40,957 nt of DNA. It comes from Nitrospirota bacterium. GTDB taxonomy: Bacteria > Nitrospirota > Thermodesulfovibrionia > Thermodesulfovibrionales > SM23-35. The stretch covers positions 26,277 to 67,233 of the forward strand of contig JBFLWW010000007.1 in NCBI GenBank assembly GCA_040757475.1. The letters run 5' to 3'. Below are positions 18 through 39,735 of this stretch, in pieces; within the stretch, counting starts at the first letter, position 1, and every line of letters begins with the position of its first letter. Made by a program: the position numbers and the translations under genes. The notes under the pieces are model-generated. The model did not search any database. It saw only the letters and a program-made list of their open reading frames with translations, and was not told where the DNA came from.

Positions 18-45
18 CTTGACTTTTGACTCGTAACTATTGACT
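18..45. repeat. Degenerate 7-bp tandem array (CTTGACT TTTGACT CGTAACT ATTGACT), probably the right arm of an array cut by the window edge
   Basis: Four units with period 7, preceded by TTAAAAACT as in the spacer of the gyrB-gyrA array. Confidence 0.7.
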
Positions 46-60
46 ATTACCATAACATCT

Positions 61-1080
61 ATGCTTGAGATTGACGGTAGCTACGGCGAGGCAGGAGGAC
101 AGATACTGAGGACTTCCCTCAGCCTCTCATGCCTTTTAAGAAAACCCTTCAGGATGTTCAATATAAGAAAAGGCCGTAAAAAGCCAGGTCTGATGCCACA
201 GCACCTCACATGCGTCCGTGCAGCAACCCTTATATCTGATGCAAAGGTTAAAGGTGACGATGAAGGTTCTACTGAACTCATCTTTGAGCCTGAAGAAATT
301 AAGCCCGGTGATTATTATTTTGATATCGGCACTGCCGGCTCCACATCCCTCCTGCTGCAGTCAATATTACCACCTCTTATCTTTTCAAAGGAAAAATCGT
401 CCATAACCCTTAAAGGCGGAACACATGTGCCCTTCAGCCCGACCTTTCATTATTTAAGTGATGTATTCGTGCCCATGCTGAGTAAACTCGGAGTAAGATT
501 ATCTCTCAGTATAGAGAGTTATGGGTTTTATCCAAAAGGAGGTGGAAAGATACGTGCTGATATCATGCCGGCTAAAGATATATCCGGCATCAACCTGACA
601 GACAGAGGAGATATTATCAGTATCGCTGGTATCTCAGGGATTGGAAATCTTCCATTGAGTATTGCTGAAAGACAGAGAGCTTCTGTATTAAAAACCCTTA
701 CTGGATTCAAGGTAAATATAGAAACAATAGATGTTCCAACACCTGGCCAGGGCACATTTGTTTTTCTAAGGGCAGAGACCAATACATGTATCACTGGTTT
801 TTCATCCCTCGGAGAAAGAGGTAAAAGGGCTGAGGTTGTAGGTGAAGAGGTAGCAAAAGAATTTCTTGAATATTATTCAACAGAAGCTTGCCTCGACCCC
901 TATCTATCTGACCAGATTATGCTTTATCTTGCTATTGCAAAAGGTGAATCCTCATTCACAACATCCCGAATATCAAACCATCTTCTTACAAATATCTGGG
1001 TCATAGAGAAATTTCTCAGAGTAAAATATAAGGTTGAGGGAGAAAAGGGACTCCCGGGAAGGATAGCTATCTCAAAATGA
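61..1080 (+). CDS. rtcA: RNA 3'-terminal phosphate cyclase
   Basis: N-terminal IDGSYGEAGGQILRTSL, GFYPKGGG and SDQ...HLLTN motifs; ATG at 61 fits the family start better than TTG at 40. Confidence 0.93.
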   Translation: MLEIDGSYGEAGGQILRTSLSLSCLLRKPFRMFNIRKGRKKPGLMPQHLTCVRAATLISDAKVKGDDEGSTELIFEPEEIKPGDYYFDIGTAGSTSLLLQSILPPLIFSKEKSSITLKGGTHVPFSPTFHYLSDVFVPMLSKLGVRLSLSIESYGFYPKGGGKIRADIMPAKDISGINLTDRGDIISIAGISGIGNLPLSIAERQRASVLKTLTGFKVNIETIDVPTPGQGTFVFLRAETNTCITGFSSLGERGKRAEVVGEEVAKEFLEYYSTEACLDPYLSDQIMLYLAIAKGESSFTTSRISNHLLTNIWVIEKFLRVKYKVEGEKGLPGRIAISK

Positions 1081-1196
1081 CTAAATTACAAATTTCAAAG
1101 CTCAAAGTTCAAATGTTTTGGCATTTGGATTTGGCATTTGGATTTTGAAATTTGGATTTCATTTGGCATTTGTAATTTGGTAATTGGTGTTTGGAT
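1075..1196. repeat. Inverted pair of degenerate ~7-bp arrays (CAAAnnn units, then TTTGGnn units)
   Basis: Left CAAATTT CAAAGCT CAAAGTT CAAATG; right TTTGGCA TTTGGA TTTGGCA TTTGGAT TTTGAAA ... TTTGTAA TTTGGTA. Confidence 0.8.
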
Positions 1197-1198
1197 TA

Positions 1199-1274
1199 TG
1201 GTGGGCAGTCGCAGAATCGAACTGCGGACACGAGGCTTTTCAGGCCTCTGCTCTACCGACTGAGCTAACTGCCC
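1199..1274 (-). tRNA. tRNA-Phe (GAA)
   Basis: 76-nt cloverleaf: acceptor GGGCAGT/ACTGCCC, anticodon arm GAGGC-CTGAAAA-GCCTC, T-loop TTCGATT, encoded CCA. Confidence 0.97.
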
Positions 1275-1348
1275 ACACTTTAAACTCTACACTTTTAACT
1301 TTTCTACTGTCAAGCCACTAAAGTTATAGTGTAAACTAAGAAAACACA

Positions 1349-37041: not shown

Positions 37042-37044
37042 GGG

Positions 37045-37973
37045 ATGGAAAAGCTAAAGGAGATCCTCGACAGGTTTTATAAAGAATATAACTCAAAAGA
37101 AAGGATTCTCCATGACCCCATTGAATTCCCTCATCAATACAAACGACCTGAGGATATAGAGGTCTCTGGATTCATCGCATCATGCTTCGCCTATGGGAAG
37201 GTAGATTTATTCAAGCCTGTCATCAGAAGAATTCTCTCAATTATGGGCAATAGCCCTTATGACTTCCTGTCTGAGTTTAATGTAAAAAGCATGGTCAATT
37301 GTTTTCAGGGATAAGATACAGATTTAATGAGAATAAAGATATCGTATGTCTGCTATATCTTTTGAGTGCGTTATTAAATAAGAATAAATCAATCGAAAAT
37401 GTATTCAAACGATTTTATAAGAAGGAAGACACTGATATTGGTGATGGTTTGAGCGGCCTTGTTAATCATATCCTGGATATTGATACCTCAAGGGTCTACG
37501 GGGAAAACATCCATCCACCTGGCCTTCTTCAATTCTTTCCGTCTCCCTCAAAAGAGAGCGCATGTAAGAGGGCAAATCTGTTTCTGAGATGGATGGTGCG
37601 TGACAGAGATATTGATTTTGGTATATGGAAGGGTATTCCCCAAAATAAGCTTATTATCCCTCTTGATATCCATATTGTGCGGATTTCAAAATGCCTCGGC
37701 TTTACAAAACGAAATTCTCAGGATTGGAGGATGGCAGTCGAGATTACAAATACATTAAAAATGTTTGACTCAGAAGACCCACTCAAATACGATTTTGCAT
37801 TATGCCATCACGGGATTTCAGGGTCATGGTCGGGGCGAGAGGATTTGAACCTCCGACCCCCTGCTCCCAAGGCAGGTGCGCTCACCAGGCTGCGCTACGC
37901 CCCGAACAACTCCAAAAAGTCTTTGACTTTTTGGAGACCTCTCAATACCTCAATATCTCAAGGTAATCACTGA
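37045..37973 (+). pseudogene. TIGR02757-like protein, frameshifted at an A5 run (37284-37288) and running through tRNA-Pro antisense
   Basis: DPIEFPH, FAYG in one frame; SACKRANLFLRWMVR, DFGIW, PLDIH, DPLKYDFALCH in the next. Confidence 0.8.
37827..37904 (-). tRNA. tRNA-Pro (UGG)
   Basis: 78-nt cloverleaf: acceptor CGGGGCG/CGCCCCG, anticodon arm CCTGC-CTTGGGA-GCAGG, encoded CCA. Confidence 0.97.
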
Positions 37974-38658
37974 TGTCCTTTGCTTCGTCACCCTCTGCAC
38001 TTATCTTCCTGTTTTTGAGGTCTTCGATTGCACGGTCTCTATTTCCTTTATAAAGGGGATCAAGCTCTATTGCACGCGCAATCGCTATGGATGCATCGCC
38101 GTATTTACCTTTAGCATTATAACAGAGGGCAAGCCCATAATAGGGTAGAACAAACTCAGGAACTCGTTTAATAGCCTCCCTGTATGCATCTATTGCATCA
38201 TCGTATCTTCCGAGTCTGTAATATATACGACCCAGATTATTGAGGGCCTTTTCTGCAGTCTGATACAGGGGATTAGCAAGCGCAGTTTTATAAGATTTAA
38301 TAGCATCTTTAACCATGCCTGTTTTTTCATAAGCATATCCGAGGTTGTTATGTGCATCAGAGAAATCTGCATCTATACTGATTGCCCTTTCAAAAAATTC
38401 TATAGCCTTTGGGATGTCCTCAAGATTAAGGAGATAAATTACACCAATCGCATTCAGGACTTCCTTATCATTAGGGTTAAATTCAAGGGCCTTTTGAAAT
38501 TCTACATATGCTGCTTGGATTTTGTTATTGTTGTAATAGGAAATACCCAGTTTGTAATGGGCACTGGCCCTCTGAACATTCTCTCCTGTCTTAGAGGTTG
38601 CGCAGGAACTTAAAAAAGCTGTAAGTAATAGAAATAGAATAAGAAGATATTTTCTCAT
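37942..38658 (-). CDS. TPR lipoprotein (PilF/PilW-like)
   Basis: Lipobox FLSSC, multiple TPRs, ALANPLY...ALNNLG. Confidence 0.8.
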   Translation of the reverse strand: MRKYLLILFLLLTAFLSSCATSKTGENVQRASAHYKLGISYYNNNKIQAAYVEFQKALEFNPNDKEVLNAIGVIYLLNLEDIPKAIEFFERAISIDADFSDAHNNLGYAYEKTGMVKDAIKSYKTALANPLYQTAEKALNNLGRIYYRLGRYDDAIDAYREAIKRVPEFVLPYYGLALCYNAKGKYGDASIAIARAIELDPLYKGNRDRAIEDLKNRKISAEGDEAKDISDYLEILRY

Positions 38659-38767
38659 TTTTAAAAATTATCAGAAACTGACAGGTAAGTAAAGAGAAAA
38701 TTCGGTTGCCCAAATCGTCCCTTTTAGTGCACAATAAACAATCTGTTTCGAGGAAAAGGAGGGGGTC

Positions 38768-39685
38768 TTGCCTGTCAAGGTAGGTGTAGTTGGAGTTGGC
38801 TATCTGGGCCAGCATCATGTCAGGCTCTATTCTGAGATTGAAGACACAGAGCTTACGGCTATTGTTGACATCGATGAAAAGAGGGCTGATGCGTTTGCAG
38901 AGAAATATGGATGTGAGGCATATTCTGACTACAGAGAGATTCTCGATAAGGTTGATGCCCTGAGTATTGTAACACCTACAACATCTCACTATAATATTGC
39001 CCTCGATTGCCTCAGGGCAGGGAAGGACATACTTATAGAGAAGCCAATAACAGTGAATGTCGAAGAGGCTGATGAGCTTATCAGAGAGTCAGAAAAGAGG
39101 GGCTGCATCTTACAGGTAGGCCATCTTGAGAGATATAATCCGGCTGTGCTAACTGCCTCTGAGATGGTAAAAGAACCGAGGTTCATCGAGGCAGAGAGAC
39201 TTTCACCATTCTTAGGAAGGGGAATTGATGTTGATGTTACACTCGATCTCATGATTCATGATATAGACATAATACTGAGTCTTATATCTTCGCCTGTCAA
39301 AGAGATAAGGGCAGTAGGGGCAGAGGTCTTGACTTCTAAGATTGATGTTGCAAAGGCATGGCTTGAGTTCGAAAATGGCTGCATAGCCCTTATTACAGCA
39401 AGCCGTTTATCACCCGAAAAACAGAGGAGGCTTAAGGTCTTTCAAAAAGACTCTTATATATCCATTGATTTTCAGAGCTATGAGGTAAGGTGTTATTTCA
39501 GAACAGGAGATGATATATCGTTCGATGTCATAAAGCCTGAACATAAAGAACCACTGAGAGAAGAATTGAGGGATTTCATTAATTGTGTGAAGGAAAGAAA
39601 AAGACCAAAGGTCTCTGCTACTGAAGGAAGGAATGCACTTAAGATAGTCTTGAAGATAACAAATAAAATTAAAAATGCAAAATGA
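38768..39685 (+). CDS. Gfo/Idh/MocA oxidoreductase, GnnA-like UDP-GlcNAc 3-dehydrogenase
   Basis: GVGYLG, IEKP, GHLERYNP, DLMIHDID; upstream of an aminotransferase and lpxB. Confidence 0.85.
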   Translation: MPVKVGVVGVGYLGQHHVRLYSEIEDTELTAIVDIDEKRADAFAEKYGCEAYSDYREILDKVDALSIVTPTTSHYNIALDCLRAGKDILIEKPITVNVEEADELIRESEKRGCILQVGHLERYNPAVLTASEMVKEPRFIEAERLSPFLGRGIDVDVTLDLMIHDIDIILSLISSPVKEIRAVGAEVLTSKIDVAKAWLEFENGCIALITASRLSPEKQRRLKVFQKDSYISIDFQSYEVRCYFRTGDDISFDVIKPEHKEPLREELRDFINCVKERKRPKVSATEGRNALKIVLKITNKIKNAK

Positions 39686-39735
39686 AAAATGCAAAATTAT
39701 GGAATTCATTAATTTTAAATTTTAAATTTTGAATT
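39665..39735. repeat. Inverted pair of AT-rich 7-bp arrays containing the oxidoreductase stop codon
   Basis: AAAATTA AAAATGC AAAATGA AAAATGC AAAATTA ... TTAATTT TAAATTT TAAATTT TGAATT. Confidence 0.75.

Follow-up and report, generated by a model that had tools for sequence, protein, structure and literature searches.

The heptamer repeats of cyanobacteria have been known for decades, and we know of no accepted account of their origin or role. The parts of PMC4679880 and PMC4692102 that deal with such repeats describe heptamer over-representation, the idea that slippage produces it, and patchy sets of TAACTGA repeats in Beggiatoaceae, cyanobacteria and Bacteroidetes; they also describe the GGGAATC repeats of Xanthomonas, which occur occasionally as inverted pairs and vary rapidly. 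In this study, arrays of tandem 7-nt units were analyzed in a stretch of 40,957 nucleotides (the window; G000:C7:26277-67233) from a groundwater Nitrospirota genome of 1.744 Mb, which consists of 53 contigs and has a GC content of 41%. Its nearest GyrB relatives are metagenome-assembled genomes (MAGs) of the Nitrospirota / Thermodesulfovibrionia (84-70% identity), and the identity to Candidatus Sulfobium mesophilum is 79%. The arrays are a genuine genome-wide system with one architecture and many units. Our preferred reading, which we hold to be probable with some reserve, is that they form a superfamily of selfish palindromes built from heptamer arrays resembling the short tandemly repeated repetitive (STRR) sequences, filtered by selection to spacers adjacent to stop codons and to in-frame, stop-free protein loops, and homogenised locally.

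An earlier note on this DNA had claimed at least nine arrays of period 7 and had named nine places. Tandem Repeats Finder (TRF) returned period-7 rows at all nine (15-45, 1083-1194, 5680-5750, 9259-9350, 14766-14802, 19708-19745, 24710-24739, 32109-32140 and 39665-39735), and the sequences are as described. The note had also proposed that period 7 be compared with periods 5, 6, 8 and 9 and with simulated controls, and a clear excess at lag 7 was found. When segments of 24 positions with at least 20 self-matches were counted over the whole genome, there were 303 at lag 7 and 110 at lag 14, as against 0, 1, 35 and 4 at lags 5, 6, 8 and 9; the lags from 3 to 13 other than 7 gave 0-35, and at lag 7 the three genomes simulated with an order-3 Markov model contained 0. 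The window alone contains 8 such segments at lag 7 and 0 at lags 5, 6, 8 and 9. With overlaps removed, the TRF array counts for the genome were 469 at period 7, 124 at period 14 and 29 at period 21, the simulations having 32-53 at period 7. A lag-7 segment scorer identified 463 arrays genome-wide (13,683 bp, 0.78% of the genome) and 6 in a Markov-simulated genome, and at lags 5, 6, 8 and 9 it gave at most 62 arrays. Arrays of period 8 are likewise over-represented (62 versus 4 in simulation).

The nine arrays of the window, four of which contain inverted arm pairs (1076-1185, 5675-5734, 9258-9351 and 39657-39724), are the following, in window coordinates:

18-45, no strand: single pyrimidine-type arm (CTTGACT-like units) in the divergent spacer upstream of rtcA.
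1066-1196, no strand: long hairpin element between rtcA and tRNA-Phe, with a purine-rich arm at about 1075-1114 and a T-rich arm at 1117-1194.
5674-5752, no strand: hairpin element after the dnaA stop (5668) and before the dnaN ribosome-binding site, with arms of AATAACC type and GGTTATT type.
9258-9351, no strand: hairpin element of the main family (AGTNACN / NGTNACT), beginning 4 nt past the gyrB stop, its end 19 nt short of the gyrA start.
14748-14802, minus strand: array over the end of clpB (ORF 14780-17428), with the clpB stop within the array.
19706-19747, minus strand: in-frame single arm in truA, 6 units, 42 nt encoding 14 amino acids, RSEVKSEKSEVRSQ.
24711-24738, plus strand: in-frame single arm (ATTCAGC x4) in a histidinol-phosphate aminotransferase-like (hisC-like) gene, directly after the encoded NESPYP.
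32109-32140, plus strand: in-frame single arm (GAGTCAR x4.5) in a transglutaminase-like gene, upstream of Transglut_core.
39665-39735, no strand: hairpin element of the AAAATKC family with a GGAATTC-like loop; the stop of a GFO/IDH/MocA oxidoreductase gene (39683-39685) lies in its first arm.

The length of the arms peaks at 30-33 nt, or about 4.4 units. Inside open reading frames (ORFs; n=272 arms), lengths of 30, 31, 32 and 33 nt were found in 22, 47, 31 and 23 cases (123 in total), and the intergenic arms have peaks at 25-26 and 30-34 nt. Adjacent arrays make up 59 inverted pairs, the commonest gap being 10-14 nt and the span peaking at 72-74 nt. In a full element, about 75 nt in all, a short loop (10-17 nt in many cases) joins a purine-rich arm to a complementary pyrimidine-rich one, the former measuring about 31 nt (4.4 units); many copies are single arms. 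The purine-rich, A-rich arm is the 5' one in 54 of the 59 inverted pairs (mean purine content 0.67 versus 0.33). The earlier claim that the A-rich arm comes first in the transcript therefore agrees with the order of the arms but carries no information on orientation to the transcript, because a purine-first hairpin stays purine-first when it is reverse-complemented; the polarity is a property of the element. That one architecture is shared by different units was confirmed throughout the genome. The 463 arms have 141 consensus units, which fall into 46 clusters when joined at one mismatch or less, and the largest clusters are the AGTNACN / ACTCNTC group (105 arms) and those of AAAGTTC-like (67), AAGTGAG-like (48) and AATGACT-like (33) units.

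At unrelated loci, copies of one family have their non-repeat loop in common. When one of the two elements in murE was searched by blastn together with its 150-nt flanks, about 30 matches of at least 60 nt (70-96% identity) were obtained on about 17 contigs and on both strands, and the similarity of the copies stops at the arm edges. In four other metagenome runs, examined at the murE locus, depth is up several-fold exactly over the two elements, and the loose contig ends at L087 1722, 1793, 2734 and 2803-2806 coincide with element edges. The comparison genome G001, a MAG of the same genus with 92-93% nucleotide identity over the regions compared, holds at least 25 dispersed copies of the 39665-39735 element (71-92% identity) and several of the 9258-9351 element. 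The arrays behave as a multi-copy dispersed palindromic element with discrete ends, and since the copies have loops and ends in common, they count as dispersed elements.

A comparison of orthologous loci for filled and empty sites, which the earlier note had suggested, revealed both states between the congeners. The block at 1066-1194 (129 nt) is absent from G001, leaving a clean empty site, and at C2:56396 of the present genome a 30-nt array has no counterpart in G001, where the empty site contains no seed unit. The reverse case is a 42-nt array pair of G001 in the GFO gene, at window 39277-39296, which the present genome does not have. Orthologous G001 arrays are present at 18-45, 14748-14801, 32109-32140 and 39665-39735. 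Relative to G001, 16 indels of at least 6 nt were listed for the dcw region; 13 of them are multiples of three, and one more indel of 61 nt lies upstream of the region. Identity to G001 is 70.3% within arrays (431 columns, 19 arrays) versus 92.5% outside them (41,526 columns), and length differs in 30 of 39 orthologous arrays. Changes are concerted: at 32109-32140 both inner units are GAGTCAA here and GAGTTGG in the G001 array of equal length, and in murE and murD one or two letters, the same ones in each unit, distinguish whole arms from those of G001. The murD array (C2:56010-56040) differs from that of G001 by -7 and +1 nt, which leaves an 8-nt unit; this may be a frame-restoring footprint, perhaps related to the excess of period 8.

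According to a crude ORF-based gene model (1745 genes, 89% coding), 272 of the 463 arms lie inside ORFs, 62 across ORF ends and 129 between genes. At least 180 nt from both ORF ends and with an in-frame coding signal on either side are 153 arms, in 92 ORFs. Conserved Pfam domains were found in 16 of 16 multi-array host genes tested. The host proteins are UvrA (6 arrays), a MurE-like ligase, a FabF-like synthase, RecJ, MurD, FtsW, LpxK, a GH3 hydrolase, TilS, MoeA, topoisomerase I (TopA), LeuRS, HypF, TamB, TrpE and Dxs. The statement that intragenic copies have one arm is correct for the three in the window; genome-wide, 28 of the 59 pairs lie wholly within ORFs, and it had been overlooked that the majority of arms are intragenic.

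The Pfam results, MurE and truA all indicate in-frame insertions with intact domains on both sides. Compared with 13 relatives, both MurE elements stand as insertions in variable loops; they were placed by sequence alignment to PDB chains. Residues ~72-95 lie opposite a gap of 12-13 residues in solved MurE chains, and residues ~397-435 occupy the stretch from the middle domain to the C-terminal one, which is a few residues long in the solved chains. The intragenic MurE hairpin (fold -29.7 kcal/mol, z -4.7) consists of 6-bp helices with a mismatch every 7 nt, its arms on the coding strand being AGTTACG and GTCACT. As read from the letters, the mismatch appears to fall at the position at which full complementarity would put a TAA or TGA into the coding strand; a periodic mismatch that avoids stops is the footprint expected if intragenic copies are translated. 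Relatives L088-L090 and L095 have other small in-frame palindromes in the same MurE loops, one of which is GC-rich, encodes PSLTLPP(R/E/Q)GGGQGWG and occurs several times. A short, near-perfect in-frame hairpin of murE (CCCCAGAAAGTC ... GACTTTCTGGGG) was also noted at L087 ~2300-2345 (C2 ~49660-49700 of the present genome), where G001 has an AAACTCA heptamer array.

Arrays outside ORFs were grouped into 151 elements with 151 adjacencies to gene 3' ends. The stop codon lies inside the array in 42 of these adjacencies, and in 35 the array starts -1 to 4 nt past the stop, which bears out the earlier description of boundary copies as beginning at or just after a stop codon. The distance to the next start codon is centred on 10-40 nt. 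Within the window, rtcA, clpB and the GFO-family gene have their stops in arrays, and the dnaA and gyrB elements start 4-6 nt past the stop. In 5 of the 8 relatives shown, the dnaN ribosome-binding site follows the dnaA stop within about 25 nt (L003, L004, L005 and L007; L006 with a slightly longer spacer), so that the only harmless spot is beside the stop; L002 has a short heptamer tract in this spacer, L009 and L061 longer unrelated spacers, and G001 a shorter unrelated tract. Purine-rich arms contain TGA or TAA in every frame within three units. Taken together, the short spacers and the stops within purine-rich arms can explain the stop-adjacent placement without targeting.

The individual arrays differ in the stability of their predicted folds and in their state in relatives. 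The array at 18-45 is kept in G001, there without a gap or a partner arm before it. The window starts right after a 100-N scaffold gap (L086 6178-6277), 17 nt upstream of this array; G001 is continuous across the gap, so that little may be missing. The array repeats TTGACT, and a promoter scan gave a -35/-10-like match at 26-53, upstream of rtcA. The rtcA ORF extends into the first arm of the 1066-1196 element, ending with TGA at 1078-1080, and this element has an RNA fold of -34.2 kcal/mol (z -4.0). The 5674-5752 element folds with -23 kcal/mol (z -3.6). The 9258-9351 element has 31-nt arms that are 81% complementary (-37.1 kcal/mol, z -5.9); at this position after gyrB, L001 and L002 have a heptamer tract with another unit and L003-L008 have none. 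At 14748-14802, where the orthologous G001 array shows point differences, the fold is weak (z -1.4). The adjoining hsp20 gene (14251-14718, minus strand; region 14152-14745) is absent from the orthologous G001 contig and is accompanied by a strong terminator-like palindrome at 14209-14240. The truA arm adds 14 residues between the conserved GWQAQ and RTVPTIQ, and similar copies are dispersed in G001. At the site of 24711-24738, G001 has a different, partly palindromic sequence. In the orthologous G001 copy of the 39665-39735 element the second arm is 27 nt longer; the fold of this element is weak (-9.8 kcal/mol, z -1.1).

The distribution of the arrays was investigated in relatives and viruses. 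In the dcw region, five genera of the same family have 8-13 lag-7 arrays per stretch of at most 20 kb, with no other lag being frequent, and six other relatives yielded no lag-7 arrays in this region. Across the class the AGTNACN arm pattern has a patchy spread. Of the 121 genomes sampled, 40 contain it; six of these, which belong to five families, have 65-120 hits, against 0-12 for the reversed-pattern control. The full 31-nt AGTNACN arm was detected in 67 IMG/VR stretches of 24-69% GC. L190, a Mu-like IMG/VR contig (GemA, Gam, portal-like) of 13.5 kb and 58% GC, contains 31 heptamer arrays, many of them paired between genes as a purine arm, a 10-nt gap and a 31-nt pyrimidine arm, with a different unit. 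This unit resembles the published TAACTGA repeat. The first 50 kb of the Nostoc plasmid pCC7120alpha hold 3 arrays, all intergenic, which are too few to inform a comparison. In G001 a 30-nt GC-rich palindrome (L101 ~4846, 6019, 12958) is nested twice inside heptamer arrays. A 2008 paper in Genome Research reportedly described small dispersed repeats nested in the heptamer arrays of Nostoc; the G001 palindrome resembles these, and constitutes a second element type, not the arrays themselves.

According to the preferred reading, the arrays would be copies of very small non-coding selfish repeats built from tandem heptamers. New copies would arise by copy-and-paste of existing elements, leaving no obvious target duplication. 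Purifying selection would remove gene-breaking copies and would thereby account for the placement at stop codons, for indel lengths divisible by three and for the periodic mismatches by which intragenic arms are freed of stops. Slippage or gene conversion within or between arms would homogenise the units, each locus drifting to its own unit as the architecture stays. The hairpin would be a property of the DNA element and not an evolved RNA device, and copies would survive only where they are harmless, as Rickettsia palindromic elements (RPEs) do.

The earlier note had invoked a dedicated process. Of this, the notion of a mobile cassette fits the common loops, the discrete ends, the unrelated loci and the filled and empty sites, but no dedicated enzyme was found among the two candidates tried. 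Mobilisation by a tyrosine transposase associated with repetitive extragenic palindromes (RAYT) has no support: the Y1_Tnp genes at C33:15856-16191 and C27:1337-1663 have no arrays in the flanks inspected, and Y1_Tnp occurs in 22 of 25 relatives irrespective of arrays. Loss of mismatch repair was discarded as a cause, MutS_I being present in 118 of 121 genomes of the class, all six array-rich ones included. With regard to MITEs (miniature transposable elements with inverted repeats), inverted arms are present and no clear duplication was seen at the three filled/empty sites examined; the flanks have a weak A-run on the left and a weak T-run on the right.

Several observations weigh against the preferred reading. 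No mobilising enzyme was identified, the candidates tested being Y1_Tnp and MutS only, and neither a conserved target motif in the flanks nor a clear target-site duplication at the filled/empty sites 1066-1194, C2:56396 and 39277 was found. A clear inverted partner within 110 nt exists for 128 of the 463 arms (82 of 191 outside ORFs and 46 of 272 inside them; reversed-sequence control, 10), so that most copies are single arrays, as plain tandem repeats predict. The 141 consensus units, with 11 clusters of one arm, are not easily traced to a few mobile masters. At several sites, protein loops included, the two congeners have different elements instead of a filled and an empty state, which implies that local genesis or replacement also occurs. 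The length differences of orthologous arrays are not clean multiples of 7 or 21, so that the slippage step is not demonstrated, and as gap lengths taken from BLAST are unreliable inside repeats they neither prove nor exclude it. Finally, open frames are the one indication that intragenic copies may be translated.

Among the other explanations, an artefact of assembly or binning has a negligible chance. The genome is a MAG of 53 contigs with runs of N, and the window opens after a gap beside an array, but the same arrays are found in contigs of other runs and studies. This support consists of assembled contigs and not of raw reads; the first of the two murE elements is bridged gap-free by contigs of two other runs, X2 (another study) and X3, and the stretches of L087 uncovered by X2 and X3 were left out of the interpretation. 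Moreover, the independent MAG of the same genus has arrays at orthologous sites, many other MAGs also have arrays, and the arrays leave long ORFs open. It appears unlikely that the arrays are plain long simple sequence repeats (SSRs) made in place by slippage, with 7 nt favoured by the replicase, no mobility, and inverted partners arising via template switching at a nascent hairpin. Heptanucleotide repeats are the most abundant long SSR class in most genomes, and polymerase slippage is offered as the explanation, as far as the passages of PMC4679880 and PMC4692102 on a 2007 survey relate. In keeping with slippage most arms are single, units are numerous and change in concert, murD differs by -7 and +1 nt, and period 8 is in excess. 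Slippage does not readily produce non-repeat loops and exact ends common to about 30 copies at unrelated loci, an arm length that is sharply peaked instead of decaying, or filled sites whose G001 counterparts are empty of any seed unit (C2:56396, for example); the orthologous length differences are mostly not multiples of 7, and the same unit family, variable at the same positions, turns up again both in distantly placed families and among viral contigs with a GC content of 24-69%.

Selection for a function, either as intercistronic RNA hairpins acting in mRNA stability, processing or attenuation or as arrays of binding sites for a protein with a 7-nt step, is in our view improbable. The placement at stop codons and 10-40 nt upstream of starts, the several stable hairpins (z -3.6 to -5.9), the uniform polarity and arm length, and the arm pairs between genes of L190 with its 31 arrays in 13.5 kb would suit it, and cold-shock proteins are reported to bind heptamer direct repeats in the portion of PMC4679880 concerned. 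Yet G.U mismatches are not above A.C mismatches on the transcribed strand of intercistronic pairs (30 versus 31), a flat result that lends no support to selection for RNA pairing. A reading as intrinsic terminators is likewise unsupported: a scan of 1-20000 picked 0 of the 3 paired hairpins and did pick the hsp20 palindrome, and terminator-like sites are at shuffle expectation. Two window elements fold no better than shuffles, and even within the genus the elements are conserved neither in presence nor in sequence or length. The role in mRNA processing or stability that had been proposed for the hairpins is thus not supported; more than half of the arms are in coding sequence, where such roles are unlikely, and the stop-adjacent position is what a compact genome leaves free. 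A dedicated machine specific for the architecture and independent of the unit, such as a polymerase for templated addition or repair that works at hairpins or breaks and measures out about 4.4 units, is very unlikely. It would explain why arm length (about 31 nt), loop length (about 10 nt) and the purine-first polarity are constant across 46 unit clusters, why the architecture recurs with another unit in an unrelated viral contig of 58% GC, and why different elements replace one another at the same protein loops; against it, neither Y1_Tnp nor MutS, the only genes tested, proved to be a candidate, the loops conserved within families point to the copying of existing elements, and a frame constraint of +/-21 nt in coding sequence could alone sharpen the arm length. 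A wider form of this idea, which we consider quite improbable, is that a unit-independent process operating in several phyla and their phages imposes the architecture (hairpin with the purine arm first, about 4.4 heptamers per arm, about 10 nt in the loop), by means of a protein ruler or of templated synthesis over five 7-nt steps that would build or rebuild elements at stop codons and protein loops. If true, it would also explain the cyanobacterial heptamer repeats.

The gene content of the window is that of ordinary housekeeping functions: rtcA, tRNA-Phe, lnt, prfB, dnaA, dnaN, gyrB, gyrA, hsp20, clpB, a MerR-family regulator gene, dnaJ, truA, hisD, hisG, hisC-like and purF-like genes and others. 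Rfam, at gathering score, identified three tRNAs and no other family in the window. The prfB gene (2935-3140) resembles those with the classical programmed +1 frameshift, the site being at about 3007-3013: a short ORF starts with ATG at 2935 and ends at CTT TGA, preceded by AGAGG, and the ORF with PCRF/RF-1 (3136-4038) is in the +1 frame. A 137-nt MITE-like element without heptamers lies at 27358-27494, between the purF-like gene and the next gene; its terminal inverted repeats, of 20 nt, are at 27360-27379 / 27454-27473 and its inner palindrome is at 27409-27453. It is missing at the orthologous G001 site, and G001 has copies at other loci. At 35399-35480 the window has about 1.45 kb (1192 + 256 nt) fewer than G001, within what is apparently a single G001 gene; this may be a deletion or a mis-assembly.

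As regards significance, this lineage offers the kind of repeat known from cyanobacteria in a compact 1.7-Mb genome, with a crisp element structure and measurable turnover between congeners. About 1 gene in 20 carries in-frame copies, including uvrA, topA, leuS, murE, murD, dxs and trpE. This makes testable the spread of the elements, the tolerance of proteins to 10-40 extra residues derived from selfish DNA, and repeat-driven indels as a source of new protein loops outside Rickettsia. In practical terms, assemblies from short reads break at the arrays, which also make ORF and protein divergence in such MAGs come out too high.

Compared with known systems, the arrays belong in the broad sense with heptanucleotide SSRs of the STRR-like kind, having tandem 7-nt units and an over-representation of period 7. 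The host of STRR sequences in the strict sense is a (heterocystous) cyanobacterium, unlike the Nitrospirota host here; some published STRR units are presumably rotations or complements of the present ones. With the STRR and heptamer sets dealt with in the relevant parts of PMC4679880 and PMC4692102 the arrays share short tandem 7-nt sets, an excess of period 7, many unit variants per genome, a patchy spread, occasional inversion, and variation in length and sequence among close relatives. Those sets are mostly intergenic, as described there, in contrast to the 272 of 463 arms that are inside ORFs in this genome, and the arm-loop-arm structure with 31-nt arms, the purine-first polarity and the family loops have no counterpart in the portions of the main text consulted, the supplements of which may hold more. 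Six strings of 13-14 nt from the two main unit families did not occur in the literature text searched, and a search with STRR consensus strings yielded unrelated papers only. Among the matches listed, none linked Nitrospirota with such repeats; PMC12306157, the one among them with terms of both sorts, mentions the phylum a single time, in a genome table.

Like REP and REPIN sequences (repetitive extragenic palindromes), which the passages of PMC12306157 on them (see also PMC3116915) depict as short palindromes near gene ends, often in inverted hairpin pairs and many copies, the arrays occur beside genes, and as in REP/REPIN-RAYT systems there are Y1_Tnp genes in the genome. They differ in that the arms are AT-rich heptamers and not G+C-rich stems, that many copies are intragenic, and that the two Y1_Tnp genes are without flanking arrays. 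With RPE, ERIC, SPRITE and BOX they share the nature of small dispersed palindromic families that lie in frame in unrelated housekeeping genes, which they leave intact, and also between genes, as set out in the relevant sections of PMC10969869 and PMC3184786. Size and host set them apart from the RPEs, which measure ~105-150 bp according to the same sections: the present elements are ~75 nt long, have arms of tandem heptamers and a Nitrospirota host. With 92 host genes the scale exceeds that of the 44 insertions given for the RPEs of R. conorii in the part of PMC10969869 concerned, and a further difference is that the units here are homogenised locus by locus. The term "undescribed system" used in the earlier note was too strong, since heptamer excess and repeat sets (PMC4679880, PMC4692102) and in-frame palindromes (PMC10969869, PMC3184786) are in print, as the parts of these papers bearing on them attest. 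The arrays rather combine two known kinds of repeat DNA, STRR-like repeats and an RPE-like way of life, in a form that we have not found described.

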